Source: Desulfobacterales bacterium
Lineage (GTDB): Bacteria > Desulfobacterota > Desulfobacteria > Desulfobacterales > JAFDDL01
DNA length: 64,000 nucleotides
Assembly (NCBI GenBank): GCA_034003325.1
Contig: JAVEYW010000002.1
Location: 315,662 to 379,661, forward strand
Direction: 5' to 3'
The notes under the pieces are model-generated. The model was not told the origin of the DNA. It did not search any database and worked only from the letters and a program-made list of their open reading frames with translations. Position numbers and translations under genes: made by a program. Each line of letters starts with the position of its first letter. Position 1 is the first letter of the stretch. Below, piece after piece: positions 30,828 to 53,698 of this stretch.

Positions 30828-30830
30828 GAG

Positions 30831-31724: not shown

Positions 31725-31830
31725 TCCCATTCGAGTTGGCCCACACAGGGAAACCCTTGCCTGTTTCCTAAACAAATTCGTTTTTGACAAGCGTATGGCG
31801 TAACCCAATCGCCCACGAGGAGCTTATAAA

Positions 31831-33276: not shown

Positions 33277-36200
33277 ATGACGCTGAAAACTATTTTTAAT
33301 AAGCCTGTTGACCGACCGATTGAAGGGGTCATCAAAGCCGACGATGAAGAAAGCCTTCTCCTTGAAACCGAAGAGTATGTGCTGACCAATGAGGTGGAAA
33401 AGCGCTTGGAGTCATTCCTGGATGCTTACAACACCTACGAGGGGGCCAACGGGGTTTGGGTTTCCGGCTTCTTCGGGTCCGGGAAATCTCATCTGTTGAA
33501 GATGCTGGCACTGCTTCTGGAGAACCGGCGGATCGACGGCGTTTCCGCTCTCGATTTGTTTCTTCCCAAGTGCGGCGATAACGAGATTCTCCGAGGGGAT
33601 CTCAAGCGGGCCGTTGCGATTCCCTCAAAAAGTATCCTGTTCAACATCGACCAGAAGGCGGATGTTATCAGCAAAACCCAGATCGATGCGCTCCTTGCCG
33701 TATTCGTCAAGGTGTTCGACGAAATGTGTGGCTACTACGGCAAGCAGGGTCATATTGCTCAATTTGAGCGCGATCTCGACAGCCGGGGGCATTATGAGGC
33801 GTTCAAATCGGCTTATCAAACTCTTGCCGGGAAAAGCTGGGAAAAAGGGCGCGAACAGGCATTGCTGGAGTCACAGAATATCGCCAAGGCCTATGCCCGG
33901 GCCACCGGCGGCGAGGATACCTCGGCAATGGGGATTCTCGATAAATACAGAAGCCAGTATCGGGTCTCGATCGAGGACTTCGCCGATCAAATAAAGGCCT
34001 ATGTGGACCGGCAATCTCCCGAGTTCCGGCTGAACTTCTTTGTTGACGAGGTCGGACAGTACATCGCCGGAAACGTGAAGCTGATGACGAACCTTCAAAC
34101 CATCGCCGAAAGCCTTGCCACCAAGTGCCGGGGCCGAGCCTGGATCATGGTGACCGCTCAGGAGGACATGAATTCGGTTGTCGGTGAAATGAGTAACCAG
34201 CAGGGTAACGATTTTTCCAAGATTCAGGCCCGTTTTGCCAACCGGATGAAACTTACCAGCGCCGATGTGGCCGAAGTGATTCAAAGGCGCCTGTTATTGA
34301 AAAACGATGAGGGGGTTCGACTGCTGTCAGACGTTTATCATGCGGAGGTGAACAACTTCAAAACCCTCTTTGACTTTGCGGACGGCTCGCCGATCTACCG
34401 CAATTTCCAGGACCGGGACCATTTCATTCACAGCTATCCCTTTATCCCTTACCAGTTCGTGCTGTTCCAGTCCGCAATTCAGAACTTATCCCAACATAAT
34501 GCCTTTGAAGGAAAACACAGCTCGGTCGGTGAGCGCTCCATGCTGGGCGTATTCCAGCAGGTGGCCATTCAAATCGGAGATCATCAAATCGGACAGCTTG
34601 CAACCTTTGACCTGATGTTTGAAGGGATTCGAACGGTTCTGAAATCCAATATTCAGCGCTCCATCCTGCAATCCGAAAAGCAGCTCGACAACCCATTTGC
34701 CATTCGGCTGCTGAAAACGCTTTTTCTCGTCAAGTACGTCAAGGAATTTAAGCCGACAGTCCGCAACCTGTGCGTGCTGATGCTGGATCACTTCAAGCAG
34801 GATCTGCCCCAACTGCGCCGGCAGGTTGAAGAGGCGCTCAACCTGCTGGAACTTCAGACCTACATTCAACGCCATGGAGACCTCTACGCGTATCTCACCG
34901 ACGAGGAAAAGGATGTCGAGCAGGAGATCAAAAACACCGAAGTTGAATCCACCGAGATCGCCGCAGAGCTTGAAAAGATCATTTTTGATTATGTCATCAA
35001 GAACCGAAAGATTCGCTACGACGAGAAAGGGCAGGACTACCCCTATTCCAGGAAACTCGATGACCGCCTTCACGGTCGGGAATATGAGCTTTCGATCAAT
35101 GCGATAACCCCTTTTCACGAATTTGCGGGAAATGAGCAAACCTTGCGAAGTCACTCGTTCAACCGGGAAGAGCTGCTGGTCGTGATGCCGCCGAATGATC
35201 GACTGGTGCGCGATATTCTGATGTACAAGCGAACTGAAAAATACATCAAGCAGAACATTTCCATCACTCAGCAGGAAGGGGTCAAACGTATCCTGACCGA
35301 TAAGGGCTTCCAGAACGCGGATCGCTATGCGGAGTTGAAGCAGCTTATCCAGATGCTTCTTGGCAAAGCCAAACTTTTTGTGGCGGGCAATGAGGTCGAG
35401 ATCGGTGGAGAAGATCCCCAGGCCCGAATCACCAAGGGGTTTCAACAACTTATTATACGCGCTTATCCGAACCTGCGCATGCTGCGCGGAATTGCCTACA
35501 CCGAAAACGATGTCGTTAAATGCCTCAAACAGTCCAAGGAGGGGCTGTTCGGTAATGATGTGACATCACTGGCCGAATCAGAGCAGGAATTGCTTGCTTT
35601 CATCCAGAGCAACATCCGCGGCGGCGTGCGCACGACCCTGAAGAGCCTGCTGGAAAAGTTTGAGCGCAAGCCTTATGGCTGGCCTTATGCGGCCGTTCTC
35701 TGCACACTTGCTCATCTTTGCGCCCGGGGCAAGGTAGAGGTTCGGACTGACGGAACAATCCTTGAGGAAGACGACCTCGAACGCGCGCTTCGCAACACGC
35801 ACAGCCATGGCAATGTTGTGCTGGAACCACAGGTCGATTTTACCCCATCCCAGGTTCGCAGCCTCAAGGAGTTCTATGAGGATTTTTTCGATAGCCCGCC
35901 CCGTGCCACTGAAGCAAAGGCACTTGCCAAGGAGACCGGTGCTGCCTTGAAGGACATGATACAGGACCTAAACCCCCTGGCGGCGCAGTCGGCGCAGTAT
36001 CCTTTCCTGAATGTGCTGACCCCGGTTCTTGAGAAGCTGAAAGGACTCGCCGGCAAACCCTACGCTTGGTATCTGACCGGGCTGCTGTGTGAGGATAATG
36101 CCCTGATTGCGCTGAAGGAAAAGGTCATTGACCCGGTTCGAAAGTTCATGAACGGGCCGCAAAAGGGTATTTTCGACGCTGCCCGTAAATTTGTGCAGGA

Positions 36201-36867
36201 GCAGGAGCCGAATTTTGACTACATCAGAGAAAGGGGAAGTGGGAAGCTCGAAGTGAAAGAGGGCTCACCCTACGGTTTTACGCCTGATACCTTGCTTCAG
36301 GCTTTGGCTGATCCCGAATGTTTTAAGGGTAATGGCATGCAGCAGGTGAAAACCCTGGTGGACACGCTGCAAGAAAAGGTGACGGCACGGATCGCGGCAG
36401 AGATCAAAAAAGCTTTAGATACCGTTGCGGCACTCAAGGACCGTCTTTGTGATATGGCCGAATTTGCCGCGCTAAAGCCAAGCCAGCAGGAGCAAATCAC
36501 TCGGTCATTCATCGAGTTTTCTCAGTCGATTGAACAACAAAAACTGATCGCCGTGATTCGCGATAACCTGCGGCGCTTTGAAGAATCCGACTACCAACGG
36601 CTGCTTTCCCAAATGGCTTCCTGGGCAAAACCCACACCAAAGCAAACCCCTTCGGGGGGAAGCGAACCGGCGCAAGCTTCAGGAAAGGAAACGGCAGTAA
36701 CACCGATTGAACCGGAAGCCCCTGTTGAATACGTGTCAGGCCGAAATCTCAGGTTTTCCTTTGATAAAGCCTGGCTTGCTGATGATTCGGATGTGGACCG
36801 GTACCTCAAGGCCATGCGGGAGGCGCTTTTGGCTGAGATCCGGAAAGGGAAGCGGATACAGATTTAG
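33277..36867 (+). CDS. brxC: BREX system P-loop ATPase BrxC
   Basis: The product is 1196 aa with the Walker A 'GFFGSGKSHLLKML', 'FFVDEVGQYI', and the size and position typical of BrxC. Confidence 0.9.
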   Translation: MTLKTIFNKPVDRPIEGVIKADDEESLLLETEEYVLTNEVEKRLESFLDAYNTYEGANGVWVSGFFGSGKSHLLKMLALLLENRRIDGVSALDLFLPKCGDNEILRGDLKRAVAIPSKSILFNIDQKADVISKTQIDALLAVFVKVFDEMCGYYGKQGHIAQFERDLDSRGHYEAFKSAYQTLAGKSWEKGREQALLESQNIAKAYARATGGEDTSAMGILDKYRSQYRVSIEDFADQIKAYVDRQSPEFRLNFFVDEVGQYIAGNVKLMTNLQTIAESLATKCRGRAWIMVTAQEDMNSVVGEMSNQQGNDFSKIQARFANRMKLTSADVAEVIQRRLLLKNDEGVRLLSDVYHAEVNNFKTLFDFADGSPIYRNFQDRDHFIHSYPFIPYQFVLFQSAIQNLSQHNAFEGKHSSVGERSMLGVFQQVAIQIGDHQIGQLATFDLMFEGIRTVLKSNIQRSILQSEKQLDNPFAIRLLKTLFLVKYVKEFKPTVRNLCVLMLDHFKQDLPQLRRQVEEALNLLELQTYIQRHGDLYAYLTDEEKDVEQEIKNTEVESTEIAAELEKIIFDYVIKNRKIRYDEKGQDYPYSRKLDDRLHGREYELSINAITPFHEFAGNEQTLRSHSFNREELLVVMPPNDRLVRDILMYKRTEKYIKQNISITQQEGVKRILTDKGFQNADRYAELKQLIQMLLGKAKLFVAGNEVEIGGEDPQARITKGFQQLIIRAYPNLRMLRGIAYTENDVVKCLKQSKEGLFGNDVTSLAESEQELLAFIQSNIRGGVRTTLKSLLEKFERKPYGWPYAAVLCTLAHLCARGKVEVRTDGTILEEDDLERALRNTHSHGNVVLEPQVDFTPSQVRSLKEFYEDFFDSPPRATEAKALAKETGAALKDMIQDLNPLAAQSAQYPFLNVLTPVLEKLKGLAGKPYAWYLTGLLCEDNALIALKEKVIDPVRKFMNGPQKGIFDAARKFVQEQEPNFDYIRERGSGKLEVKEGSPYGFTPDTLLQALADPECFKGNGMQQVKTLVDTLQEKVTARIAAEIKKALDTVAALKDRLCDMAEFAALKPSQQEQITRSFIEFSQSIEQQKLIAVIRDNLRRFEESDYQRLLSQMASWAKPTPKQTPSGGSEPAQASGKETAVTPIEPEAPVEYVSGRNLRFSFDKAWLADDSDVDRYLKAMREALLAEIRKGKRIQI

Positions 36868-36951: not shown

Positions 36952-38625
36952 ATGAACGTAAGTGAACAGGAAGTCCTTGATCTGATTCGGCAAGGTGAAA
37001 ACCTGACCATTGAATTTAAAAGTGACCGGAAAAAGCTGTCTGACAGCGACCTGGTCGCTGCCATCGTCGCTCTGACAAACACGGAATGCGGCGTCCTTAT
37101 TTTGGGCGTGGAAGACGATGGGGCCATCACAGGGCTTCATGCATCCCACCGGGATACGCTTGGGATGGCCGCCCTAATTGCGAACCGCACCAATCCACCG
37201 CTTTCCGTCGGGATAGAACAAATTAAAGTTCAAGATATACCAGTCGTTCTCCTCCGTGTTCCCAAATCCAGACAACTGGTTTCTACCTCTGATGGATTGA
37301 TTCAGCGAAGGCGATTAATGGCAAACGGCAACCCCGAAGCCGTACCTTTTTACCCGCATGAATTTATTCAAAGACAATCTTCAATGGGATTGACCGACCC
37401 TTCCGCGATGCCCATCCAGGAATTACCCATCGATGAATTAAACCCCCTGGAAAGGCACCGAATACGCGAAGCTATTCGAAAATTCGGGGGCGATCAATCC
37501 TTGTTGCCGCTTGCGGACAATGAGTTGGATGGGGCTCTCGGGTTGACCAGGATTTCCGGTGGATCACTGTGCCCGACTTTGGCCGGGTTGCTGCTGCTTG
37601 GGCGCGAAGAACATCTGCGGCAATACTTGCCGGCATATGAAGTTGCCTTCCAAGTCCTTGAGGGTACGGATGTCAGGGTCAATGAGTTTTTCAGAAAACC
37701 GCTGTTACAAACTTTCGAGGCGGTAGAGCAGCTTTTTAGGGTACGTGTTACTGAGCAAGAGATTCAAATGGGGCTTTTCAGGGTTGCGGTTCCCAATTTT
37801 GATCGCCGCGCCTTCCGGGAAGCGTTTGTCAACGCGCTAGTTCATCGGGATTATTCCAGATTAGGCGCTGTCCATGTCCGTTTGGATGACGATGGCATCA
37901 CCCTTTCCAATCCCGGAGGCTTTGTTGAAGGTGTCACCTTGCAAAACCTGCTGGTTGTTCCTCCACGTGCACGAAATCCACTACTTGCGGATATTGTAAA
38001 GCGCATCGGCTTGGCGGAAAGGACAGGCCGCGGGATCGACCGTATTTATGAAGGAATGCTTCGATACGGACGCCCGGCGCCGGACTATGGCATGTCCGAT
38101 GCCACCTCTGTAGTGCTGTCCCTGTCCGATGTAGACCCTGACTTCAAATTTTTGGAAATGATCCTGAACCAGGAAAGCCGGACAGGATCCGCCCTGCCTA
38201 TTGACAGCTTGATTCTGCTTTCCCGTCTACGGAATGAACGCCGCCTTTCCATAGCAGAACTCACGCCGGAAATCCAAAAATCGGATCAAGCCACCAGGCG
38301 GGTCCTTGAAAAACTGGTGGAAGCGGGGCTGGTTGAGGCCCACGGTGTCGGTCGTGGCCGCACATACACGCTGAGCGTCAAGGTTTACCAGCAATCCGGG
38401 CAGAAAGCGGCATATGTCCGTCAGGCTGGGTTTGATCCCATTCAGCAGGAACAGATGGTTTTGAACTACATTGACGCGCATGGTTCCATTAAACGAGCGG
38501 ATGTGATTGAGCTTTGTCGATTAACCAAGGATCAGGCCGCGAAGCTTTTAAAACGGCTTATTTTTAAAGGGAATATAGAAAAGCATGGCGAGCGCAGGTG
38601 GACTCACTATGTGCGCAAATCATAA
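36952..38625 (+). CDS. AlbA_2 (Schlafen-like 'divergent AAA') + HATPase_c_4 + C-terminal winged-HTH protein (COG2865-type)
   Basis: The N-terminus 'EQEVLDLIRQGENLTIEFKSD...AIVALTNTECGVLILGVEDDGAITGL' is AlbA_2. The middle, 'FREAFVNALVHRDYS...VRLDDDGITLSNPGGF...RNPLLADIVKRIGLAERTGRGIDRI', is HATPase_c_4. The C-terminus has two HTH-like repeats. Confidence 0.8.
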   Translation: MNVSEQEVLDLIRQGENLTIEFKSDRKKLSDSDLVAAIVALTNTECGVLILGVEDDGAITGLHASHRDTLGMAALIANRTNPPLSVGIEQIKVQDIPVVLLRVPKSRQLVSTSDGLIQRRRLMANGNPEAVPFYPHEFIQRQSSMGLTDPSAMPIQELPIDELNPLERHRIREAIRKFGGDQSLLPLADNELDGALGLTRISGGSLCPTLAGLLLLGREEHLRQYLPAYEVAFQVLEGTDVRVNEFFRKPLLQTFEAVEQLFRVRVTEQEIQMGLFRVAVPNFDRRAFREAFVNALVHRDYSRLGAVHVRLDDDGITLSNPGGFVEGVTLQNLLVVPPRARNPLLADIVKRIGLAERTGRGIDRIYEGMLRYGRPAPDYGMSDATSVVLSLSDVDPDFKFLEMILNQESRTGSALPIDSLILLSRLRNERRLSIAELTPEIQKSDQATRRVLEKLVEAGLVEAHGVGRGRTYTLSVKVYQQSGQKAAYVRQAGFDPIQQEQMVLNYIDAHGSIKRADVIELCRLTKDQAAKLLKRLIFKGNIEKHGERRWTHYVRKS

Positions 38626-38890: not shown

Positions 38891-41800
38891 ATGGAAACTT
38901 CGAAGCTGAAAAAATTTGCACAGTATGCGCGCCGAAACTTAATAGAGCAGGTTTCCGCCAAGCTGAAGCTGGTATTGGCCGAGGACAGCGCGGCCCGGCG
39001 CGAGAATGCCCCAGCCGTTAAAAAGCTTGAAGAGCAGATCGGGGAAACTGGCGAAAGCCAAGTGATCGAAAAGGTCGCCTATACCTGGTTTAATCGTTTC
39101 TGCGCGCTGCGTTTCATGGATGTGAACCGTTATACCCGGATTGGTGTGGTGTCGCCTGCAGAAGGGCAGTTTCAGCCTGAGATTTTGGCCGAGGCCAAGA
39201 TGGGCCATATCGACGAGAGCATGGTACCCGAGAAAACCCGGCAGAAGGTTTTTGCATTGCTGGATGGCAAGGTTCCCAGTAATGATCCGCAGACTGAGGC
39301 TTACCGACTCCTCGTGGTTGCCGTTTGTAACGACTACCACGATGCCATGCCCTATCTGTTTGAGCGGATTGCCGATTACACCGAACTGCTGATGCCCGAT
39401 GATCTGCTTTCGGGAAACTCTATCCTGGCCTACACCCGCGAGGCGATGACGCCTAATGCCTGCCAGGACGTGGAGGTCATCGGATGGCTCTACCAGTTTT
39501 ATATCAGCGAGAAGAAGGACGAGGTCTTTGACGGCCTGAAGAAAAACAAGAAAATCACCCCCGAAAATATTCCGGCAGCGACACAGCTCTTCACCCCGCA
39601 CTGGATCGTGCGGTATCTGGTTGAAAATTCCCTCGGTCGTCTCTGGATGCTGAACCGTCCCGATTCGAGATTGATTGAACGGATGGACTACTACATCAAG
39701 CCCGAAGAGGCGGAAACCGATTTCCTGCGCATCAGCAAGCCGGAAGAACTGAAGATCTGCGATCCGGCCTGCGGCTCCGGGCACATGCTGACTTATGCCT
39801 TCGACCTGCTCCATGCCATTTATGAGGAAGAAGGCTATGAACCTGCGGAGATCCCGGAAAAGATCCTCACCCACAACCTCTACGGCATCGAGATCGATGA
39901 ACGCGCCGGGGAACTGGCTGCCTTTGCCCTGACCATGAAGGCCCGCGCCAAACATCGCCGCTTTTTCAGAAAGAAGGTGGTCCCCAATATCTGCGTGCTG
40001 GAAAATATCCGGTTCAATGAGGGCGAGCTAAAGAGTTACATGGATTTTGTCGGGCGGGATCTTTTTACCGCGCCTTTGCAAACCACCCTGCGGCAGTTTG
40101 AAGAGGCGGATAACTTCGGGTCTCTGATTCGCCCTAAGGTAAGCGATGTGGCGTGGATATTAAAAACGCTGAAAGAGAAGAATGTCTCTGGACAAATTTT
40201 TCTGAGCAAGACCCATCTGAAGGTATTGAAGGTCTTGCGGCAGGCCGACTATTTCAGCCCCCAGTATCATGTGGTGATTGCTAATCCGCCGTATATGGGG
40301 GGCAAGGGGATGAATGGGCGTCTGGGTGCTTGGCTTAAAGATAACTATCCAGATGTGAAGTCTGATTTGTTTTCGGCCTTTATGGTTCGAAATACTGAGC
40401 TTGCTTTGCCGAAAGGCCAATTGGGTTTCATGTCGCCATTTGTATGGATGTTTATTTCATCTTTCGAAAGGCTACGCAATTTCCTCATTAATCAGAAAAC
40501 GATCACTTCACTTGTCCAGCTCGAATACTCCGGCTTTGATGGAGCAACGGTGCCAATTTGCACTTTCACTGTGGAGAACACACATCATCCCGATTTTAAG
40601 GGAGGGTATGTACGCCTTTCCGATTTTCGTGGGTCAGAATACCAAGGCCCAAAAACGCTCGAAGCCATTAATAATCAAAATTGTGGCTGGTTTTACCGAT
40701 CTTCCGGCACCAACTTCAAGAAAATACCCGGCAGTCCTATCTCTTATTGGCTGAGCGAAAAGTTGTTGAATAGCTTCACTAAAGCAAAGGAATACCTTTC
40801 AGATTCTGGAACTATACGTGAAGGTATAACAACTGGAGACAATGACCGTTTCTTGAGACTGTGGTATGAGGTTGGTCAATCTCATACGCAACTTGAATAT
40901 GATCAAGGCAACAGTTCTTATAAATGGTTTCCGCATAGAAAAGGGGGGGGCTATAGAAAATGGGCTGGGAATATGGAGTATTTTCTTAATTGGAAGGATA
41001 ACGGTACAGACATTCATGTGTTTCATGCGTTGCCACTTGACTATAATGGCGCACCAGTTCGTGGCAAAGCATATTTTTTTAGAGAGGCATTGTCTTGGAG
41101 TCGTATTAGCTCAGGAAAATTTTCATTGCGTTACCATAAAGCGGGCTCAACATATGACTCAACTGCGCCATCAGTATTCACAAGTTCCGACCGAAAAAAT
41201 CAAACGCTCGCTTTTTTGAATGGGAAAATTGTTGCTCATCTCTTGGCTGCGATAAGTCCAACCCTTGACTTCAGAATTACTAATCTCGGCAGATTGCCGT
41301 TGCTCTCTATCAACTCGTCCAGTCTGTCAAAAATTAATGCAAACACCATAGCTTTGGTTCGTTCTGGGCAAGTGGATTGGGATTCCTACGAAACCTCTTG
41401 GGATTTTAATGACCTGCCGCTACTTCGACCCGATTATTGGCAACCAACTTTGAACACCACTTACCAGAAGCTCCGCGCCCACTGGCAGGAAATGGCACTT
41501 GAAATGCAACGTCTCGAAAAAGAGAACAACCGCATCTTTATTGAGGCCTATGGCCTGCAAGATGAGCTAACACCCGACGTCCCTCTAAGTGAAATCACCC
41601 TGACCTGCAATCCCCACTACCGCTACGGTAACAACAAGAGCGAAGACGAGCTGGAAACCTTGCTCCTGGCCGACACCATGAAGGAGTTTATCTCCTACGC
41701 CGTGGGCTGCATGTTCGGCCGCTATTCGCTGGATAAACTGGGGCTAATTCTTGCCAACCAGGGCGAAACCATTGAGGATTATCTGAAGCAAATCCCCGAA

Positions 41801-42406
41801 CCGATCTTCCCGGCGGATGCCAACAACGTCATCCCCATGCTCGACGGCGACTGGTTCACCGACGACATCGCCGAGCGCTTCCGCAAATTCCTGCGCGTCA
41901 CTTTTGGCGAGGAGCACTATGAGGAGAACCTCAAGTTCCTCGAAAAGGCCCTGGGTAAAGACATCCGCAAGTATTTTCTTAAAGATTTTTATAACGACCA
42001 TGTTCGCCGGTACAAAAAGCGGCCCATTTACTGGCTGTTTTCAAGCCCAAAGGGCAGTTTCAATGCTCTCATCTACATGCACCGCTATCGCCCGGATACG
42101 GTGAGCGTGGTGCTCAATGATTATCTGCGCGAGTTCCGCGCTAAACTGATCGCCCGAAAGGATCATCTTGAGGCGGTGAGTATCAGCGCCGGTGCCTCCT
42201 TGGGAGAAAAAACCAAGGCGCTAAAAGAGATCGAAACCTTAAAAAAGATGATAAACGAGCTGAGCGCCTATGAACGCGAGGTGCTCTATCCGCTTGCTAC
42301 CCAGCAAGTGGCAATTGAGCTTGACGACGGGGTGAAGGTGAATTACCAGAAATTCGGCGCGGCCTTAAAGAAGATTCCGGGTCTGGATGCGAAAGGTGAG
42401 GAGTGA
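38891..42406 (+). CDS. pglX: BREX-1 N6-adenine DNA methyltransferase PglX
   Basis: The product is 1171 aa with the SAM motif 'ICDPACGSGHML', the catalytic 'VIANPPYMG', and a conserved C-terminal region 'RPIYWLFSSPKGSFNALIYMHRY'. Confidence 0.92.
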   Translation: METSKLKKFAQYARRNLIEQVSAKLKLVLAEDSAARRENAPAVKKLEEQIGETGESQVIEKVAYTWFNRFCALRFMDVNRYTRIGVVSPAEGQFQPEILAEAKMGHIDESMVPEKTRQKVFALLDGKVPSNDPQTEAYRLLVVAVCNDYHDAMPYLFERIADYTELLMPDDLLSGNSILAYTREAMTPNACQDVEVIGWLYQFYISEKKDEVFDGLKKNKKITPENIPAATQLFTPHWIVRYLVENSLGRLWMLNRPDSRLIERMDYYIKPEEAETDFLRISKPEELKICDPACGSGHMLTYAFDLLHAIYEEEGYEPAEIPEKILTHNLYGIEIDERAGELAAFALTMKARAKHRRFFRKKVVPNICVLENIRFNEGELKSYMDFVGRDLFTAPLQTTLRQFEEADNFGSLIRPKVSDVAWILKTLKEKNVSGQIFLSKTHLKVLKVLRQADYFSPQYHVVIANPPYMGGKGMNGRLGAWLKDNYPDVKSDLFSAFMVRNTELALPKGQLGFMSPFVWMFISSFERLRNFLINQKTITSLVQLEYSGFDGATVPICTFTVENTHHPDFKGGYVRLSDFRGSEYQGPKTLEAINNQNCGWFYRSSGTNFKKIPGSPISYWLSEKLLNSFTKAKEYLSDSGTIREGITTGDNDRFLRLWYEVGQSHTQLEYDQGNSSYKWFPHRKGGGYRKWAGNMEYFLNWKDNGTDIHVFHALPLDYNGAPVRGKAYFFREALSWSRISSGKFSLRYHKAGSTYDSTAPSVFTSSDRKNQTLAFLNGKIVAHLLAAISPTLDFRITNLGRLPLLSINSSSLSKINANTIALVRSGQVDWDSYETSWDFNDLPLLRPDYWQPTLNTTYQKLRAHWQEMALEMQRLEKENNRIFIEAYGLQDELTPDVPLSEITLTCNPHYRYGNNKSEDELETLLLADTMKEFISYAVGCMFGRYSLDKLGLILANQGETIEDYLKQIPEPIFPADANNVIPMLDGDWFTDDIAERFRKFLRVTFGEEHYEENLKFLEKALGKDIRKYFLKDFYNDHVRRYKKRPIYWLFSSPKGSFNALIYMHRYRPDTVSVVLNDYLREFRAKLIARKDHLEAVSISAGASLGEKTKALKEIETLKKMINELSAYEREVLYPLATQQVAIELDDGVKVNYQKFGAALKKIPGLDAKGEE
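40943..40950 (+). repeat. G8 homopolymer tract inside pglX (codons GGG GGG GGC)
   Basis: Read directly: aaaaGGGGGGGGctat, in frame with pglX ('HRKGGGYRKW'). Confidence 0.95.
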
Positions 42407-42413
42407 ACCGGAT

Positions 42414-43574
42414 ATGAGTGACAAGAACACCACGCAACCTGCATTGGACTTCGGACAACTGGTCGGTGTCATCCGTCAAGTCCATGACAAGTTGGCAGCC
42501 CAGGTAAGCCGGGCTGTCAATACCAGCCTCACCCTTCGCAACTGGATGATTGGGTTCCACGTTGAGGAGTATGAGCGCCGGGGCGTTGATCGTACCGAAT
42601 ACGGCGACAAGTTGATGGACATGCTCGCCGATAGTCTGACCCAGCTTGGCGTATCGCGTTGTGATCGGCGGGAAATTTACCGCTATCGCCAGTTGTATCT
42701 GACTTACCCGCAGATTGTGGAGATAGTGACTCCACAATTGCAGCCTCTGATAGGGCAGGTATGTTTGGCTGGTGCCGATTCTTCATCCGATGCCGCTGCC
42801 CCAACGATTGTGGAGACGTCTCCACAGTTCAGAATCGATGGTAAGACCCTGATTTCGCGCCTATCGTTTTCGCATATCGTGGAATTGCTCAACCTGGAAG
42901 ATGCCACCAAGCGCACGTTCTATGAGGTGGAGTGCATCCAGGGCAACTGGTCGGTTCGTGAATTGAGACGACAAATCCACAGCCTCTACTATGAACGTTG
43001 CGGCCTTTCGATAGATAAAAAGAAGCTTTCGGAACTTGCCCGGCAAGGCGCGGAGCAGGTGTCACCCGCCTTGCCGGTGCGCGACCCGTATATATTCGAG
43101 TTCCTGGGCCTGACGCCTCGAGAGGTGATGAGCGAATCACATCTCGAAGACCAGCTTATCAGTAAGATTGAAGAATTCCTTTTGGAGCTGGGCCACGGAT
43201 TCTGCTTTGAAGCCCGGCAAAAACGAATCCTGATCGGGGACGAGCATTATTTTATTGATCTGGTTTTCTATCACCGCATCCTGAAGTGCCATGTGCTGGT
43301 GGAGTTGAAACTGGCCGAGTTCAGCCATGAAAACATTGGCCAGCTCAATACCTACGTAAGCTGGTACAGAAAAAACATGATGCTTGAGGACGATAACCCG
43401 CCCATTGGCATCCTGCTTTGCACCCACAAGAAGCACTCTCTGGTCGAGTTCGCGCTGGCAGGTATGGATAACCGGCTATTTGTATCCAAGTACCAGATGG
43501 AGCTGCCCAAGCGGGAGGAAATCGAGCGGTTTCTTGCTGAAAAGCTCCATGAAGCAGGGGGCGTGGATGAGTGA
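42414..43574 (+). CDS. DUF1016 / YhcG-family PD-(D/E)XK nuclease
   Basis: The N-terminal helical domain reads 'LTLRNWMIGFHVEEYE...YGDKLMDMLADSL'. The C-terminus, 'RDPYIFEFLGL...HLEDQLISKIEEFLLELGHGFCFEARQKRILIGDEHYFIDLVFYHRILKCHVLVELKLAEF...GQLNTYVSWY', contains the D...ExK motif. The start is 7 nt after the pglX stop. Confidence 0.85.
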   Translation: MSDKNTTQPALDFGQLVGVIRQVHDKLAAQVSRAVNTSLTLRNWMIGFHVEEYERRGVDRTEYGDKLMDMLADSLTQLGVSRCDRREIYRYRQLYLTYPQIVEIVTPQLQPLIGQVCLAGADSSSDAAAPTIVETSPQFRIDGKTLISRLSFSHIVELLNLEDATKRTFYEVECIQGNWSVRELRRQIHSLYYERCGLSIDKKKLSELARQGAEQVSPALPVRDPYIFEFLGLTPREVMSESHLEDQLISKIEEFLLELGHGFCFEARQKRILIGDEHYFIDLVFYHRILKCHVLVELKLAEFSHENIGQLNTYVSWYRKNMMLEDDNPPIGILLCTHKKHSLVEFALAGMDNRLFVSKYQMELPKREEIERFLAEKLHEAGGVDE

Positions 43575-43677
43575 AAAAGGGGACTTATAAATGAAAATTA
43601 ACAGGTTGAGGTTAACCCTGAATTTACAGATATCCATGAAAGATCCCGAAAATAGAAACCGAAGGCGGCAATAGAAT

Positions 43678-46182
43678 ATGAATGATCGCATTGTCCAGGC
43701 ACTGACCAAGCTATTTGAGCGTTACCGCATCGTCTTCTGGTATGACGCCAAAAAGGAACTGCGTGCTGATTTCGAGGCGCTGGCGTTGGACGGGATTGAG
43801 AAGGTGGAGCTCACCAACAATGAGTTCGGGGTGAAACACCGGATTCTGCGGGAGCAACCGGAGCAGAAGTTTCTCCTCTACCGCGAAGGCCCACAGCCCG
43901 ACGACTTGGACAACTGGCTGCTGGATGTTCAGTTGGCCCATGGTGAATTCCGGACCGATCAGGCCGCGATCTGGCTCTCCGAGTTGGAGCTGGGACTTGA
44001 GTTTACCGATGTAGTGCAGGCTCATGCGGAGTTCTATCAGGCGGCTAAGCGAAAGGATGCACTTAAGCAGATCCTTAAACCCGATGATACCCCCGGCATG
44101 ATCCGCCTGAAGATGCTGGCGGTGTGCGCGGGATGTAAAACGGACCCGCGCATGGATGCCGTGGTGGAAAACCTGCTCGCGGAACTGGCCGATGAGCGGG
44201 ACGATAAGATGAAACTGATCGGCCGTTGCAATCTGGAGGGTTTTCTCTGGGAGCAGATGACCCGCTGCTACGGTTACAAGTCCGATGAGCCGGGCATACG
44301 CGATTTTGTTATCGAACTCTTTAAATCCTGCTATGCCATGGGGACCGATGGCGAGATCCGCCTGACCGGGGATGCCCTCGTGTTCCTCAAACACTGGAAA
44401 GACAGCCGTTCGTTTGAAGCGAGTTTTGAAACGCTCTCCGCTGAGTGTGCCGATGTGATCGGCATCGAACAGGATCTGGCCAAGCGGGATTACCGTGAAT
44501 TGATCGAGCTGGATTACTTCCCCCTGATTGATCAGAAAATTATCAGCGAGCTGGTTAAGGCCGTGGCATCCCGGACCGTATCAAGCGGCGATGTAGCGCT
44601 TTGGGTTCGTCCGCGCCGGCAGGGCCACTGGTTCGGAGAGTATCGCCACCTCTACGAAGCCGTTGATTTTGCCGCACAGTTCATGCAGACCATGGATGAG
44701 GCGGTATTAACCATGGTCAGTCTGGCGGATGGCGTTCAGCGTTACAGCCGTTTCTGGTTCCCATTGGATCAACTCTACCGAAAGTTCACTTACCATGTCC
44801 GCATGTCGGGGCAGGCCTCTCTAATGGGGGCATTATCCGAGCGAATTGAGAACCTCTATTCAAATAATTATCTGCTGAAGGTCAATGACCACTGGCAGTC
44901 TTTCGTCGACGAAACGGGCAAATGGGAGGCCCCTCCCGTCCCGCTGCAAAAGGACTTTTTCAGTCGCTGGGTACAGCCTTTTCTGAAGAAGGACAACAAG
45001 GTCTGTGTCATCATTTCGGACGCCTTACGCTATGAGATCGGCGACGAGTTATTGAGCCTCATTCGCCGGGAGGATCGATTCGAGGCGCATCTGGAACCCG
45101 CCTTGACCCTGTTACCGAGCTATACCCAGCTGGGCATAGCGGCGCTATTGCCCCATAGGGAATTGGCTCTGGCCGACAACGAAACTGGAGTTGTTCTCGC
45201 GGACGGCCAAAGCTCTCAAGGCACGGCCAATCGCATCAAGATCCTGGCGCAGGCCATTTCCCAACGGGCCACCGCGGTGAAGGCTGATGAATTAATGGGG
45301 TTAAATAAAGAGGATTGCAGAGGGTTAATTCGGGATCACGATGTGGTCTACGTATATCATAACCACATTGATGCAATCGGCGGCAAACGCGAAACGGAAG
45401 AACGCGTATTCGAGGCCGTGGAAGAGACCCTGCAGGATCTGATTCGATTGATTAAAAAACTCACCGGAGCCAACGCCAACAACCTGCTCATAACCTCGGA
45501 CCATGGTTTCATCTATCAGAACCGGGCCATCGAGGAGAGCGATTTTTCCGGTTGCGATGCCGTTGGGGACCTGATTCTGTTCCGTGACCGGCGTTTTGTG
45601 TTGGGCAAGGGGTTGAAGGAGGTTTCGGGCCTTCGCAAGTTTCAATCCGCCCAGCTTGGACTGGTCGGCGATGTGGAAGTGCAGATCCCGAAATCAATTA
45701 ACCGGCTGCGACTGAAGGGTTCGGGAAGCCGATTCGTCCACGGGGGCGCATCGCTTCAGGAGGTGGTGGTTCCGGTCCTTAAGATCAACAAAAAGCGGCA
45801 GAGCGATATTTCGTCAGTTGAAGTTGATATTTTACGAGGATCAAGCTCTGTGATCACCTCCGGTCAGCTCGCTGTCGCGCTCTACCAGGCGCAACCGGTA
45901 ACCGACAAGGTGCAGCCGAGAATCCTCCGGGCGGGTATCTTCACCCAGGCGGGCAATCTGATTTCCGATAGCCACGAGCTGACGTTTGACCTGGCATCCA
46001 ACAACCCGAGGGAAAGGGAGCAACAGGTGCGTTTTCTCCTGACCCGCAAGGCGGATGAGGCCAATGGCCAGGAGGTGATCCTGAAACTGGAGGAAAAACA
46101 TGTCGGGACCTCTCATTACAAAGAGTATAAGTCGCTCCGGTATATGATGCGGCGCTCATTTACCAGCGATTTTGACTTTTAA
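43678..46182 (+). CDS. pglZ: BREX-1 alkaline-phosphatase-superfamily protein PglZ
   Basis: The product is 834 aa with 'RIVFWYDAKKELR' at the N-terminus and a PglZ core 'VCVIISDALRYEIGDEL...TSDHGFIYQ...FVHGGASLQEVVVPV'. Confidence 0.9.
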   Translation: MNDRIVQALTKLFERYRIVFWYDAKKELRADFEALALDGIEKVELTNNEFGVKHRILREQPEQKFLLYREGPQPDDLDNWLLDVQLAHGEFRTDQAAIWLSELELGLEFTDVVQAHAEFYQAAKRKDALKQILKPDDTPGMIRLKMLAVCAGCKTDPRMDAVVENLLAELADERDDKMKLIGRCNLEGFLWEQMTRCYGYKSDEPGIRDFVIELFKSCYAMGTDGEIRLTGDALVFLKHWKDSRSFEASFETLSAECADVIGIEQDLAKRDYRELIELDYFPLIDQKIISELVKAVASRTVSSGDVALWVRPRRQGHWFGEYRHLYEAVDFAAQFMQTMDEAVLTMVSLADGVQRYSRFWFPLDQLYRKFTYHVRMSGQASLMGALSERIENLYSNNYLLKVNDHWQSFVDETGKWEAPPVPLQKDFFSRWVQPFLKKDNKVCVIISDALRYEIGDELLSLIRREDRFEAHLEPALTLLPSYTQLGIAALLPHRELALADNETGVVLADGQSSQGTANRIKILAQAISQRATAVKADELMGLNKEDCRGLIRDHDVVYVYHNHIDAIGGKRETEERVFEAVEETLQDLIRLIKKLTGANANNLLITSDHGFIYQNRAIEESDFSGCDAVGDLILFRDRRFVLGKGLKEVSGLRKFQSAQLGLVGDVEVQIPKSINRLRLKGSGSRFVHGGASLQEVVVPVLKINKKRQSDISSVEVDILRGSSSVITSGQLAVALYQAQPVTDKVQPRILRAGIFTQAGNLISDSHELTFDLASNNPREREQQVRFLLTRKADEANGQEVILKLEEKHVGTSHYKEYKSLRYMMRRSFTSDFDF

Positions 46183-46196: not shown

Positions 46197-48284
46197 ATGA
46201 ACGAACTTGACCAGAAAATAAACAAACACTTTCAAGGCCTTGTTGTTCGAAAAGATCTCGTCAAGACCGTCAAGGGCAACGCCATTGTTCCCTCCTACGT
46301 GCTTGAATATCTGCTGGGGCAATATTGCGCGACCAGCGACGAGGCTTCAATTGCGACAGGTATCGAGACCGTCAAGGAGATCCTGCGCAAGCACTATGTG
46401 CATCGAAACGAAGCGGGCCTGGTCCGTTCCAATATTAAGGAAAAGGGGCGCTATAAGGTCATTGACAAGATTAGCGTCGTGTTGAATGACAAGACGGATG
46501 CTTACGAGGCGGAGTTTTCCAATCTTGGTATCAAAAAGGTGCTGGTAGATTCCGGGACAGTGAAAGCGCACCCCAAGCTCTTGGTCAGCGGCGTCTGGTG
46601 CATCGCCGATATCGAATACGAGTTCACCGAGGAAAAAAATGCCACCCCCTGGATTTTATCAACGCTAAAACCGATCCAGCTGTCTCACTTTGATTTTGAT
46701 GGCTATGTTGAAGCCAGGAAACAATTTAACACCGACGAGTGGATCGATCTTTTGATCCAGAGCATCGGTTTCAACCCGGAGATGTTTGGCCGGCGGAGCA
46801 AGCTTTTGCAACTGATCCGGCTCATCCCCTTCTGCGAGCGCAACTACAACCTGATCGAACTCGGCCCCAAGGGGACGGGGAAATCCCATATCTATTCGGA
46901 GTTTTCACCCCACGGCATTCTGCTCTCCGGCGGTGAGGTAACCGTTCCCAAGCTATTTGTAAATAACGCCTCCGGTAAGATCGGCCTTGTCGGCTACTGG
47001 GATGCAGTCGCCTTCGATGAGTTCGCTGGGAAACAAAAGAAGGTGGATAAGGCGCTTGTGGATATCCTGAAAAATTACATGGCCAATAAGTCCTTCTCAA
47101 GGGGCGTTGAAACCCTCGGCGCGGAGGCATCCATGGTTTTTGTCGGGAATACCCGGCACACCGTGCCTTACATGCTCAAGCATTCAGATCTGTTCGACGA
47201 GCTGCCCGAAAAGTTCTATGACTCCGCATTCCTTGACCGTATTCATTTTTACATTCCCGGCTGGGAAGTGGATATCATCCGTGGCGAGATGTTTTCCAAT
47301 GGCTATGGTTTTGTGGTGGATTACCTTGCGGAGATCCTCCGGTCTCTGCGCAACCACGATTATTCGGACCGTTACAAAGAGCACTTTTCGCTTTCCACCG
47401 ATATCTCGACCCGCGACCGGGACGGTATCCATAAAACGTTTTCAGGCCTGATGAAGATCCTTTTCCCGGATGGAGGCGCATCCAAGGAGGAGATCGAGGA
47501 ACTGCTGAAGTTCGCCATTGAAGGCCGAAAGCGCATCAAAGATCAATTGCTGCGAATAGATACCACTTACCCAAGGGTGAAATTTGCCTATTTGGATACC
47601 ACGGGAAAAACCCGGCTGGTGAAAACACTCGAAGAAGAGGAGTATCCCCATTGCTACCACAAGACCGTTGCTGAAGAGGAAGCCGGAGCAACTGATACCG
47701 ACATCGATTCCCAAGAAATTCCAGATTCCCCACACGGAGATTCTTCCGATGCCCAACCTGCCGTCAAGGAACAACATCTGACTTTCCAGGAAAACCAGAG
47801 GGGCATCTCTTTTGACACCTTGCTTGGCCCATATCTGCGCGGCGCAAGCCGGATTACCATGACAGACCCCTATATCCGCCTGTTTTATCAAATGCGTAAC
47901 TTCATGGAATTCCTTGAAACAGTCGCAAAAAACAAGCCCAAGGACGAAGAGGTCACTGTTCACCTGGTAACAACAGAAGACGAGTTCAAAGGGGCACAAC
48001 AGAAAGAAAATTTCGAGAAGATAAAGGAATCCTGCGGCGCCGTTGGTATTGACTTTACCTGGGAATTTGACGCAACCGGGACTATTCACGCTCGCCACAT
48101 CGTGACCGATCATGGATGGAAGATCCTTCTGGATCGAGGCCTGGATATCTTCCAGCACTATGAGATGAACGATGCCTTCACTTTTGCCAACCGCCTTCAG
48201 CAATATCGGTCTTGTAAGGCCTTCGAGGCTACATTTATTAAAAATGAAATCTGTTCACATAGCACTGCTGCGGCAAAATCATGA
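46197..48284 (+). CDS. brxL: BrxL-family ATPase (Lon_2-type N-terminal + AAA core) with non-canonical C-terminal MIT_C/PLD-fold domain
   Basis: The N-terminus 'MNELDQKINKHFQGLVVRKDLVKTVKGNAIVPSYVLEYLLGQY' and the Walker A 'GPKGTGKSH' with 'WDAVAFDEFAG' are BrxL-like. The last ~170 aa, 'GISFDTLLGPYL...TDPYIRLFYQMRNFMEFLE...VHLVTT...IHARHIVTDHGWKILLDRGLDIF', align by eye with the MITD1 C-terminal domain. Confidence 0.8.
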   Translation: MNELDQKINKHFQGLVVRKDLVKTVKGNAIVPSYVLEYLLGQYCATSDEASIATGIETVKEILRKHYVHRNEAGLVRSNIKEKGRYKVIDKISVVLNDKTDAYEAEFSNLGIKKVLVDSGTVKAHPKLLVSGVWCIADIEYEFTEEKNATPWILSTLKPIQLSHFDFDGYVEARKQFNTDEWIDLLIQSIGFNPEMFGRRSKLLQLIRLIPFCERNYNLIELGPKGTGKSHIYSEFSPHGILLSGGEVTVPKLFVNNASGKIGLVGYWDAVAFDEFAGKQKKVDKALVDILKNYMANKSFSRGVETLGAEASMVFVGNTRHTVPYMLKHSDLFDELPEKFYDSAFLDRIHFYIPGWEVDIIRGEMFSNGYGFVVDYLAEILRSLRNHDYSDRYKEHFSLSTDISTRDRDGIHKTFSGLMKILFPDGGASKEEIEELLKFAIEGRKRIKDQLLRIDTTYPRVKFAYLDTTGKTRLVKTLEEEEYPHCYHKTVAEEEAGATDTDIDSQEIPDSPHGDSSDAQPAVKEQHLTFQENQRGISFDTLLGPYLRGASRITMTDPYIRLFYQMRNFMEFLETVAKNKPKDEEVTVHLVTTEDEFKGAQQKENFEKIKESCGAVGIDFTWEFDATGTIHARHIVTDHGWKILLDRGLDIFQHYEMNDAFTFANRLQQYRSCKAFEATFIKNEICSHSTAAAKS

Positions 48285-48347: not shown

Positions 48348-50006
48348 ATGAGAAAAGAGACATTACCCGTTCCATTTCCAAGATCGTACTGGGTTATCCC
48401 TGGCGTATTCATGGCCGGAGAATTTCCAGGTGCGCAAAGCCAGATTGAGGCAGACCATAAGCTTATCAAACTGATTGATTGCGGAATTCAGCACATCATT
48501 TGTTTGATGCAGCCGGATGAAACCGATCATAGTGGAAATCCCTTTAACGAATATGAAGATAGTGTCTTAAGGTTAGCAGAAAAGAAAAAAGTGACCGTGT
48601 CCTGTTTCAGGTTTCCCATAGCCGATCAGAATGTGCCAGGGGAATCTGAAATGAAGGTAATTCTTGATGCTATCACAATCAGCATCGAAAACCGGAAACC
48701 CGTCTACGTTCATTGTTGGGGCGGCATCGGTCGTACAGGCACAGTAGTAGGCTGTTTTTTATTGAAAAACGGGCTCGCTACTTCCGGCGATGTATTGCAA
48801 ACCATAGCCGATTTGCGAAAAGACGATCCGAAGAAACACCGAATCTCCCCCGAAACGGATGCCCAGCGAAAATATGTTAAATCTTGGCTCGATAGAGATA
48901 ATGGGCAACCAACAAACCTTTCGCGGACCATTGGGTGCATGTTGGGTGGCGCCGTCGGAGACGCATTGGGCGCCCCTGTTGAGTTTATGAAACGAGAGGA
49001 TATCCTGCGTCGTTTTGGGCCGGATGGAATTACCAGCTACGCACCGGCTTACGGAGGCTTGGGCACCATTACCGACGATACCCAGATGACGCTTTTTACC
49101 GCAGAAGGTTTAATTCGAGGTGATGTCCGAGGCCGCCACAAGGGCATTACGACGTACACAGGCATGACCGAAAACGCTTACCAGCGCTGGCTTTACACTC
49201 AAGGGGAGCGGTCTGCTAAATATATCGATATTAGCGGTGAAGGAGCGGGATGGCTGATCCAGCAACAGGCTTTGCACAACCGCCGGGCACCGGGGAACAC
49301 CTGCATTTCAGCTCTTAAGGAGATGTCGAAAACCGATAAACCAGCCCGTAATAACAGCAAGGGATGTGGCGGGGTGATGCGGATGGCGCCGGCCGGATTG
49401 TTTCACTGGCGCCTGAAAAACTACCATTCACCGCAGGAAACCTTCCAACTCGGAAAGGAACTGGCAGCGCTAACTCACGGTCACCCTACCGGAGCGCTTA
49501 CTGGTGGGGTGCTGGCTATTCTGATCTTAGCGCTGGCAGATGGTGCGACACTACCGGACGCTCTTTCATTGGCTAAAACCTTATTACGTCAGGAACGCCA
49601 GCATGAAGAAACGCTGTTGGCCATACAGCTTGCCGAAGAATATTCGAAGGCTGACATGCCCCATGAAGTTGCTATTTCTAAAATCGGCTTGGGATGGATC
49701 GCCGAAGAAGCGCTTGCCATCTCGATTTATTGTGCTCTCGTTGCCCGCGATTTTCGGGATGGTATCATTCTGGCGGTGAATCACGATGGTGATTCAGACT
49801 CGACGGGTTCGATTACTGGCGATCTTCTTGGCACTGTTTATGGCGCAAATGCCATTCCGCATGAATGGCTAGAGCCTCTTGAGTTAAGGGCGGTGATAAC
49901 CGAGTTGGCCCAAGATCTGTATGTTTTTCGCAACTGGAATATTGGCGAGTACTCAAATAACGAGGAATTAAACAAGTACATCTGGGAAAAATATCCTGGA
50001 TACTAA
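48348..50006 (+). CDS. fusion protein: CX5R (dual-specificity/PTP-like) phosphatase domain + ADP-ribosylglycohydrolase (ARH/DraG family) domain
   Basis: The N-terminal ~185 aa carry the P-loop 'VHCWGGIGRTGTVVG'. The C-terminal ~360 aa read 'GCMLGGAVGDALGAPVEF...TITDDTQMTLFTAEGL...GCGGVMRMAP...HGHPTG...AVNHDGDSDSTGSITGDLLG', the typical ARH metal-binding signatures. Confidence 0.85.
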   Translation: MRKETLPVPFPRSYWVIPGVFMAGEFPGAQSQIEADHKLIKLIDCGIQHIICLMQPDETDHSGNPFNEYEDSVLRLAEKKKVTVSCFRFPIADQNVPGESEMKVILDAITISIENRKPVYVHCWGGIGRTGTVVGCFLLKNGLATSGDVLQTIADLRKDDPKKHRISPETDAQRKYVKSWLDRDNGQPTNLSRTIGCMLGGAVGDALGAPVEFMKREDILRRFGPDGITSYAPAYGGLGTITDDTQMTLFTAEGLIRGDVRGRHKGITTYTGMTENAYQRWLYTQGERSAKYIDISGEGAGWLIQQQALHNRRAPGNTCISALKEMSKTDKPARNNSKGCGGVMRMAPAGLFHWRLKNYHSPQETFQLGKELAALTHGHPTGALTGGVLAILILALADGATLPDALSLAKTLLRQERQHEETLLAIQLAEEYSKADMPHEVAISKIGLGWIAEEALAISIYCALVARDFRDGIILAVNHDGDSDSTGSITGDLLGTVYGANAIPHEWLEPLELRAVITELAQDLYVFRNWNIGEYSNNEELNKYIWEKYPGY

Positions 50007-50059
50007 AGGGGAAATATGGCTCCTGTATTTCAGCGGCCATATTTGATCAAGGTGCCTTG

Positions 50060-50761
50060 ATGTCAATTTTTTCTTCTATAAAAGGTTTCGATGGCGAGTT
50101 AACTGGGTGGTTGTCCAAAAAACTGTTTCTCGATAGTGAAATTTATAAAGATTTTAACAACGTCACCATTAATACAAACAGTGGCACCACGCAAATTGAT
50201 CAGATAATCGTTTCCAAATTCGGGATTTTTGTCATTGAGGTTAAAAATTTAAAAGGTTGGATTTTTGGGGATGAAAAAGCTGCAAAATGGACACAAGCCC
50301 TTAATGGGAAAAAATATCAGTTCCAGAATCCATTGCGGCAGAATTTCAGACACACAAAAGCGTTATCTGCGTTTCTTGGTATAGACCACTCCAAGATTTA
50401 TTCCGTGGTGATGTTTTGGGGAGAGTGTGAATTCAAGACACCTATGCCGGAAAATGTCATGATGCGCGGCTGGACCAAGTATGTTAAATCCAAGTCGAAG
50501 ATAATGTTCACAGATGATGAAGTCGTCCAAATCGGTGAAGCTATCATGACCGGCCGTCTCCCAGCGACCTGGAACACAAAAAAGGCTCACCTTCAATCAC
50601 TGAAGGAGAGACACCAAGACGATGGCGTTTGCCCTAAATGCGGCCGTGGTCTCGTTTTGAGAACCGTTAGAAAAGGCCCCGAAATTGGAAGTCAGTTTTA
50701 CGGATGTTCAGGATTTCCTCAGTGCCATTTCACAAAAGCCGCCAAAATTGCAAACGGATGA
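50060..50761 (+). CDS. NERD-domain protein with C-terminal topoisomerase-type C4 zinc finger
   Basis: 'QIDQIIVSKFGIFVIEVKNLKGWIFGDEKAAKWTQ...QFQNPLRQNFRHTKAL' is NERD, and 'CPKCGRGLVLRTVRKGPEIGSQFYGCSGFPQCHF' is zf-C4_Topoisom-like. The gene is markedly AT-rich. Confidence 0.8.
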   Translation: MSIFSSIKGFDGELTGWLSKKLFLDSEIYKDFNNVTINTNSGTTQIDQIIVSKFGIFVIEVKNLKGWIFGDEKAAKWTQALNGKKYQFQNPLRQNFRHTKALSAFLGIDHSKIYSVVMFWGECEFKTPMPENVMMRGWTKYVKSKSKIMFTDDEVVQIGEAIMTGRLPATWNTKKAHLQSLKERHQDDGVCPKCGRGLVLRTVRKGPEIGSQFYGCSGFPQCHFTKAAKIANG

Positions 50762-53654: not shown

Positions 53655-53698
53655 TTATTTAAAATGGGATAACAGAAAGTTGCCCTGTCGCGTTCATA

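Follow-up and report, generated by a model that had tools for sequence, protein, structure and literature searches.

PD-(D/E)XK nucleases embedded in bacteriophage exclusion (BREX) loci have been reported to be the commonest auxiliary effectors of these loci (PMC12839542, NAR, January 2026), and the BrxU/GmrSD type IV nuclease found in BREX-1 has been cited as complementing BREX (PMC12839542). One family with the PD-(D/E)XK signature is YhcG (DUF1016), which was predicted to be a nuclease in 2005 and whose motif, E-D-E(I/L/V)K, was defined by Kinch and co-workers (PMC1189080). This very large family is routinely flagged by automated tools as a candidate defence gene, is listed in PADLOC as candidate PDC-S02, and was placed among the restriction endonucleases in a survey of Tn7 cargo. 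DUF1016 genes are also enriched (odds ratio 17) beside the targets of programmed inversions, which for the most part are specificity genes (HsdS and PglX, for instance), and a DUF1016 gene sits inside a type I operon (PMC9881135). Here we describe a YhcG/DUF1016 gene (42414..43574, + strand) that lies between pglX and pglZ of a BREX-1 operon in a stretch of 64,000 nucleotides from a Desulfobacterales bacterium (contig JAVEYW010000002.1, positions 315,662 to 379,661), hereafter called the window. We favour, with a probability of roughly 0.55, the reading that this gene is modular accessory cargo of the pglX/pglZ slot and would act as a system-agnostic, autonomous, second-layer nuclease co-expressed with BREX.

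Two further systems frame this reading. Type I BREX is described as six conserved proteins (PMC13081857), and metal-dependent nuclease activity of PglZ was demonstrated in 2025 (PMC12205998). The latter finding makes outdated the premise of an earlier, sequence-only reading of the locus that BREX-1 has no known nuclease, and YhcG should not be mistaken for the long-sought nuclease of BREX, a role already taken by PglZ. The second system is PrrC, an ABC-ATPase-regulated tRNase that is silenced by a restriction-modification (R-M) enzyme (PMC1484252). For comparison with the window, we gathered 164 loci (L numbers below) from exact-protein look-up (two, each giving a long contig and a short duplicate contig), from 80 species-representative genomes at 41-67% identity and from 80 metagenome contigs at 59-85% identity.

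The gene and its predicted product

The open reading frame (ORF) and its translation give a protein of 386 amino acids plus a stop codon, and a public protein from a Desulfobacterales metagenome-assembled genome (P0001), also of 386 amino acids, is 100% identical to it. The TGA stop codon of pglX occupies 42404-42406 and is followed after 7 nt by the YhcG ATG at 42414, while 103 nt separate the YhcG stop from the ATG of pglZ at 43678; the sequence-only reading had given these distances as 7 nt and about 100 nt. A second in-frame ATG lies upstream at 42387, but the start was placed at 42414 because homologue N-termini and the public gene call agree on it. A ribosome-binding site read from the sequence, GGTGAGGAG (42395..42403, + strand), which contains AGGAG, lies inside the end of pglX, 10 nt before this ATG. 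Spacing of 7-8 nt between pglX and YhcG was also found in L003, L085, L087 and L088. With a GC content of 0.525 and a GC3 of 0.64, the gene matches the adjoining BREX genes, and comparison of these values with its neighbours gave no sign of recent insertion.

Pfam resolved the protein into two domains, which bore out the earlier DUF1016/YhcG assignment. The N-terminal domain, DUF1016_N (8e-25, 88 bits against a cut-off of 32.8), spans residues 21-195 (42474..42998, + strand), and the nuclease domain, YhcG_C (4.2e-55, 186.3 bits against a cut-off of 32.5), spans residues 222-369 (43077..43520, + strand), which align with profile positions 4-151 of 157. The PADLOC PDC-S02 model PDLC04807 matched residues 10-380 on profile positions 10-341 of 351 (E 7.5e-125), and the 25 of 30 PADLOC matches listed were PDC-S02 models plus one CRISPR-associated PD_DExK model. 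The family match and the BREX-1 setting far exceed chance expectation. Two other assignments were rejected: Shedu (SduA, DUF4263), as Pfam gave only YhcG_C and DUF1016_N and Shedu was absent from the 25 of 30 PADLOC matches listed; and a GmrSD/BrxU-like type IV enzyme, as neither DUF262 (GmrSD_N) nor DUF1524 (GmrSD_C) was found by Pfam or PADLOC. Pfam likewise found no NTPase domain in the protein, no NCBIfam model matched it, and a PDB sequence search returned no match at E values up to 1.

The active site extends over 43209..43355 (+ strand) and consists of E266 (43209-11), D282 (43257-9), E297-L-K299 (43302-10) and Q310xxxY314 (43341-55); it thereby fits the family motif E-D-E(I/L/V)K, followed by the QxxxY element. 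The peptide in which a D...ExK core had previously been recognized, FIDLVFYHRILKCHVLVELK, corresponds to residues 280-299 (43251-43310) and contains D282, E297 and K299, all intact, so that this assignment held. Alignment of 152 full-length homologues taken from the 164 loci showed that the catalytic positions are kept almost without exception (E in 151, D in 152, E/D in 152, K in 152, Q in 150 and Y in 151). An inactive pseudo-nuclease was rejected on the grounds of these intact residues. Strong purifying selection acts on the gene: dN/dS was 0.05-0.11 in comparisons with seven orthologues of other BREX loci, in which synonymous sites were almost saturated. The motif and domain matches thus predict that the gene encodes an intact Mg2+-type PD-(D/E)XK nuclease.

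In a full-length AlphaFold2 model (pLDDT 77), the N-terminal half was all-helical and the C-terminal domain showed an alpha/beta core; the N-terminal domain modelled alone (pLDDT 81, pTM 0.73) again contained helices only. A hypervariable linker at residues 108-142 (42735..42839, + strand), predicted to be disordered (pLDDT below 50), splits the N-terminal domain. Within the BREX clade, pairwise identity was 44% in this loop and 83-93% in the remainder, with the nuclease core highest at 93%. The length of the loop differs across the family. Foldseek searches of the PDB with the full model returned weak matches of the C-terminal domain to Cas4 SSO0001, MGME1, NucS and Hjc, all at E ≥ 2e-3, and those with the N-terminal domain model returned nothing significant. 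The best of the latter, C3PO, Noc and ParB at E 0.5-1, were rejected as noise.

Occupants of the pglX/pglZ junction in BREX-1

Close relatives of the window protein (62-89% identity) are found at the same junction of at least 11 further BREX-1 loci, i.e., L001, L003, L085-L089, L128, L139, L158 and pLM6 of Methylomonas koyamae. All of these genes lie immediately 5' of pglZ, both those at 80% identity or more (L001, L003, L085-L089 and L139) and the more distant ones in L128 and L158 (approximately 62-63%) and on the annotated plasmid pLM6 (64%). Because the core proteins of L128 and L158 are 71-84% identical to those of the window while their YhcG proteins are only 62-63% identical, the slot in these two loci appears to have received a different YhcG lineage in a separate acquisition. 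In a neighbour-joining tree the BREX-1 YhcG proteins fell into three separate groups, one of which is represented by L018, with the gene order brxC-YhcG-pglX; the tree thus gives at least three independent acquisitions of YhcG by BREX-1. The sister of the main BREX clade, L090, is 79% identical and sits beside a type III-like Mod gene; YhcG lineages move from one host system to another at about 79% identity.

Two observations concern individual branches of this tree. In L139, a metagenome contig, the YhcG orthologue upstream of pglZ is split between two overlapping frames (149-1226; 80% and 85% identity), which reflects either a frameshifted pseudogene or an assembly error. The YhcG lineage of L157 and L159 nests beside the second BREX-1 group (L128/L158); in these loci the gene (10001-11098) stands outside any R-M operon, surrounded by radical-SAM/B12-binding genes of very large size (2125, 570 and 1123 aa).

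The junction was then compared among four BREX-1 loci (L165-L168) whose PglZ is approximately 80% identical to that of the window. YhcG was not present in any of the four. The pglX/pglZ junction had no insert in Acidithiobacillus (L167) and Desulfovibrio (L168), where it measures 12 nt, and held a GmrSD/HEC-06 nuclease in Geobacter sulfurreducens (L165) and the three-gene Nsn system (NsnABC) in Nitrosomonas (L166). The brxC/pglX junction was similarly variable, with a Schlafen/AlbA_2-HATPase_c_4-wHTH gene in the window, a PD-T4-4/PDC-M47 pair in L003 and a Bro-N gene in L168. Since the contents of both junctions vary, this BREX-1 lineage offers two sites for cargo, and YhcG counts among several genes that can take each other's place there. 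It does not belong to the BREX-1 core, given its absence from 4/4 of the loci sampled.

In the main BREX clade YhcG is usually coupled translationally to pglZ by an overlap of stop and start codons. The window departs from this pattern in having an AT-rich spacer of 103 nt (43575..43677, + strand; GC 0.36), in which no element was detectable. This spacer is missing in L085, L089, L001 and L169, whose YhcG stop and pglZ start codons overlap, and it is not ancestral, as such an overlap is found in most BREX-1 homologue loci. It showed no stable RNA fold (z-score -0.18) and no conservation with L003, and was therefore rejected as a functional feature. Promoter and terminator predictions over 31.2-51.1 kb were within the counts expected from shuffled sequence, and none fell in the flanks of YhcG.

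These arrangements bear on the proposal, one of two made in the sequence-only reading, that YhcG is a methylation-coupled partner of PglX, i.e., a DNA-cleaving arm recruited to or licensed at unmethylated PglX sites. The 7-nt distance from the pglX stop, which is conserved in the clade, would fit such a partnership. However, the BREX-1 backbones with PglZ of about 80% identity either lack YhcG or carry unrelated cargo in its slot. Furthermore, other defence genes separate pglX from YhcG in L001 (Nsn genes and other cargo) and in L089 (a stacked GmrSD gene), and in both loci YhcG remains coupled to the start of pglZ. The description of BREX-1 as six conserved proteins (PMC13081857) and the nuclease already supplied by PglZ (PMC12205998) also argue against it.

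Methyltransferase neighbours across the family

The family comprises 15,745 clusters at 50% identity with E ≤ 0.001. To survey its genomic context, ORFs were called in each locus, neighbouring genes were clustered, and the clusters were named with Pfam and PADLOC. Type I genes were present in 34 loci, typically in the order hsdM-YhcG-hsdS. YhcG was also found within a type III operon, Mod-YhcG-Res (L093; PADLOC MTase_III and REase_III), within ResIII/endonuclease-YhcG-N6_N4 methyltransferase operons, within SNF2+PLD-YhcG-type IIG operons and within BREX-3, as BrxF-BrxC-YhcG-PglXI (L131). Overall, a methyltransferase gene occupied position -1 in 35/142 loci (25%) and position +1 in 13/143 (9%), and directly adjoined YhcG in 42/129 loci with genes on both sides, the last figure being a lower bound because the references were clustered methyltransferases only. 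At positions ±4 to ±8, methyltransferases made up 7/589 genes (approximately 1%). DUF1016 genes are thus strongly enriched beside methyltransferases (35/142 at -1 versus 7/589 distally). An association of the whole family with BREX was rejected, as only 1/80 species-representative homologues (41-67% identity) was in BREX-1.

Some observations from the survey concern genes that accompany YhcG. A conserved ORF of approximately 97 aa with no Pfam match lies at -1 of YhcG in L107, L108, L111-L114, L125 and L134; it is confined to one metagenomic sublineage at about 61-62% identity and may encode a small partner or regulator of YhcG. Passengers that share the operon-internal positions of YhcG include RhuM, ORF6N and the 23S rRNA-intervening-sequence protein family (L103, L117, L129, L156 and others), and in the BREX-3 locus L131 an AriA/HEC-01A-like ATPase gene follows PglXI (14853-15659). 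R-M and BREX operons seem to draw on a common pool of cargo genes.

The family-wide data cut both ways for a PglX partnership. Methyltransferases are the commonest immediate neighbours of YhcG and every host system found is methylation-based, yet HsdM, type III Mod, PglXI, type IIG enzymes and PglX are structurally unrelated and recognize different motifs. Because the neighbouring methyltransferases are unrelated, YhcG is separable from pglX and host switches need little sequence change, the gene is unlikely to be a PglX-specific partner, and dependence on PglX methylation is a poor candidate explanation. The other proposal of the sequence-only reading, an independent module riding on BREX expression, fared better: it agrees with the variable slot, with embedding in type I, type III, type IIG and BREX-3 operons, and with movement between systems.

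We therefore return to the reading of YhcG as autonomous modular cargo and outline how it might operate. The gene would probably be transcribed with the BREX operon and translated from its own ribosome-binding site. The N-terminal helical domain with its hypervariable loop might choose the target or sense a trigger, and the C-terminal E-D-ExK-QxxxY site would cut DNA, the presumed substrate, during a putative anti-phage response. The protein would work irrespective of which host system carries its gene, and the PglX motif would not decide between self and non-self, since unrelated methyltransferases adjoin genes of the same YhcG lineages. Carriage in the operon would serve expression and co-transfer.

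Several points weigh against this reading. We found no demonstrated activity or phenotype for any YhcG/DUF1016 member in the literature. In the one published test that we found, four candidates gave protection against T4, T5 or T7; the PDC-S02 gene assayed, another representative produced by itself in E. coli B, was not one of these, although this negative result could mean that a partner system or a specific trigger is needed. A fully autonomous nuclease does not explain the strong preference for methyltransferase-adjacent positions, and the translational coupling to pglZ fits a physical partnership too. The neighbours of 72/165 classified loci (the 164 and the window) were unclassified, with no recognised R-M neighbour, and the context survey itself relied on crude ORF calling and cluster-based labels.

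Two of these points, the methyltransferase adjacency and the failure to protect alone, would be explained if YhcG were inert by itself and served NTP-dependent, methylation-based systems at large (type I, type III, type ISP/IIG, BREX-1 and BREX-3) as a companion nuclease; its repeated re-acquisition in the same BREX slot would also be explained. Such a companion, to which we give a low probability, might finish off DNA that the translocating machines have nicked or on which they have stalled, or might fire when phage anti-restriction proteins disable the host system.

A related alternative, to which we give a similarly low likelihood, is that YhcG is a guard or back-up effector like PrrC or PARIS, latent while its methylation-based host system (BREX, type I or type III) is intact. 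A phage anti-restriction factor (an Ocr-like DNA mimic, a SAM lyase or an Stp-like peptide) would free it, whereupon DNA would be degraded and the infection aborted. The operon-internal position of YhcG is that of PrrC in the EcoprrI type Ic locus (PMC1484252, PMC2610378), PARIS-like OLD-ABC modules occur in BREX loci (PMC12839542), and L003 carries a PD-T4-4/AriA-like pair. Methyltransferase adjacency that spans unrelated systems, lack of protection by stand-alone PDC-S02 and a hypervariable disordered loop in the N-terminal domain, as expected of an arms-race surface, point in the same direction. However, YhcG has no ATPase or sensor domain of the PrrC/AriA type, and the move between BREX-1 and a type III-like locus at 79% identity is hard to square with a specific silencing contact. 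Solitary family members away from R-M genes, together with the 72/165 loci that have no recognised R-M neighbour, also count against a guard. T7 encodes Ocr and was unrestricted in the sole published test, which is a weak objection since the host system was absent there. If either the companion or the guard reading were true, YhcG would extend the PrrC and PARIS paradigm by a nuclease that acts on DNA.

YhcG was also found as a solitary gene in plasmid defence islands or next to integrases, away from R-M genes, and an integrase is its immediate neighbour in several Bacteroidota and plasmid loci. In phage genomes it is nearly absent, with matches in 15/50,697 records. The integrase neighbours could suggest a gene without a defence role, i.e., a homing-endonuclease-like inserter at R-M operon junctions, or a repair or recombination nuclease carried along with the shuffling of specificity genes. 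Precise intergenic insertions with tight junctions in many operons, frequent host switches and the enrichment beside programmed-inversion targets (PMC9881135) are consistent with this. We nevertheless regard it as very unlikely, because the gene is under strong purifying selection and has long been inherited together with BREX in one clade. In addition, recognised defence systems make up the remaining occupants of these slots, the target junctions in unrelated operons have no obvious sequence in common, and no flanking repeats or target-site signatures were noticed, although no systematic search for them was made.

Taken together, the survey portrays YhcG as a recurrent operon-internal passenger of methylation-based systems, and BREX-1 as a system with two well-defined cargo slots. 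The two slots, repeated acquisition and methyltransferase adjacency over five kinds of system yield clear predictions, and plasmid pLM6 of the cultured Methylomonas koyamae LM6 (NZ_CP023670.1), whose BREX-1 locus spans 56.8-72.5 kb, offers an experimental handle on YhcG in BREX.

The surrounding island and known systems

The host operon is a complete type 1 BREX operon on the + strand, in which brxA, brxB, brxC, pglX, pglZ and brxL were all found by Pfam. Upstream of YhcG lie brxA (31986-32654; Pfam BrxA 7e-56), brxB (32651-33262; Pfam BrxB 1e-41), brxC (33277-36867; Pfam BrxC domains) and the BREX-1 methyltransferase gene pglX (38891..42406; NCBIfam BREX_1_MTaseX 1450 bits, Pfam Eco57I and N6_Mtase). 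Downstream lie pglZ (43678..46182; Pfam PglZ 3e-65) and brxL (46197..48284; Pfam BrxL_ATPase 6e-131). The cargo gene of the brxC/pglX slot (36952..38625, + strand) encodes 557 aa with Schlafen/AlbA_2, HATPase_c_4 and C-terminal wHTH domains by Pfam. PADLOC gave only partial Argonaute-associated and Csa3-like matches for it and no system. It fits the class of Schlafen RNase with minimal histidine kinase and wHTH that has been reported from 1017 or more taxa as a neighbour of BREX core genes (PMC12839542).

Starting 63 nt past brxL, a gene at 48348-50006 (+ strand) encodes a 552-aa fusion of a dual-specificity PTP-like phosphatase (PTP-SAK, Tc-R-P) and an ADP-ribosylglycohydrolase (9e-76). It had no PADLOC match, related BREX loci carry PDC-S06 and SbcCD-like genes at this position instead, and it could represent an accessory gene of BREX that has not been described before. 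On the distal margin of the island, 50057-50761 (+ strand; GC 0.42) encodes a NERD nuclease domain fused with a topoisomerase-type zinc ribbon, the NERD part resembling the N-terminus of PglW (BREX type 2) and MADS6. On the proximal side, a MqsA-family HTH antitoxin-like gene (29531-30361, + strand; TIGR03830 1.5e-22) is followed, in the 1.6 kb before brxA, by three ORFs with no Pfam match (30390-30827, 30831-31199 and 31135-31419) and by a promoter-like site at 31695-31724; the genes at 29531-31985 could be a regulator or more cargo. The island as a whole spans approximately 21 kb (29.5-50.8 kb) and is bounded by an MFS transporter gene and an OYE reductase gene, with a GC content of 0.57-0.60 in these flanking genes versus about 0.50 in the island. 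Housekeeping genes follow downstream, i.e., tRNA-Asp and tRNA-Val (53577-53774, - strand) and lon (53862-56297, - strand), with two further tRNAs at 59810-59896 and 60433-60509.

Among known systems, the YhcG/DUF1016 family (PF06250 and PF17761; COG4804; PDC-S02) is the one from which nothing separates the window protein: it has the same two-domain architecture and the canonical motif, and belongs to a sublineage that travels with BREX-1. The Cas4/RecB-family/MGME1 nucleases have the E-D-ExK and QxxxY elements in common with YhcG and gave its best C-terminal structural matches, but the Foldseek matches to Cas4 SSO0001 and MGME1 were weak (E 2e-3 to 4e-3, TM approximately 0.35) and the N-terminal domain of YhcG is different. 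PrrC in the EcoprrI type Ic locus shares with YhcG the form of an optional nuclease gene between the core genes of a methylation-based restriction operon. Embedding of this kind was found in the window as pglX-YhcG-pglZ and elsewhere as hsdM-YhcG-hsdS, Mod-YhcG-Res and BrxC-YhcG-PglXI. PrrC, however, is under ABC-ATPase regulation, whereas YhcG has no NTPase domain and has an active site of the DNA-nuclease type.

BrxU/GmrSD is, like YhcG, a single-gene nuclease embedded in BREX-1, and GmrSD genes occupy the same slot in L165 and are stacked with YhcG in L089. The folds are unrelated, GmrSD combining a DUF262/ParB-like domain with an HNH-type DUF1524 domain and YhcG an all-helical domain with a PD-(D/E)XK domain; moreover, GmrSD/BrxU is a type IV nuclease, whereas for YhcG no evidence supports modification dependence. 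Neither YhcG, DUF1016 nor PF06250 is mentioned in the main text of PMC12839542 or in its six supplementary files available as text. The window gene nevertheless belongs to exactly the class of auxiliary or backup restriction endonucleases described there, i.e., a stand-alone PD-(D/E)XK nuclease with BREX core genes on both sides. An embedded accessory nuclease in BREX is thus of a known kind and implies no new mechanism, and with the PADLOC candidate PDC-S02, embedded PD-(D/E)XK genes in BREX (PMC12839542) and the PglZ nuclease already known, the finding is not very new. What the present comparison adds to these systems is the spread of YhcG across type I, type III, type IIG and BREX-3 operons.

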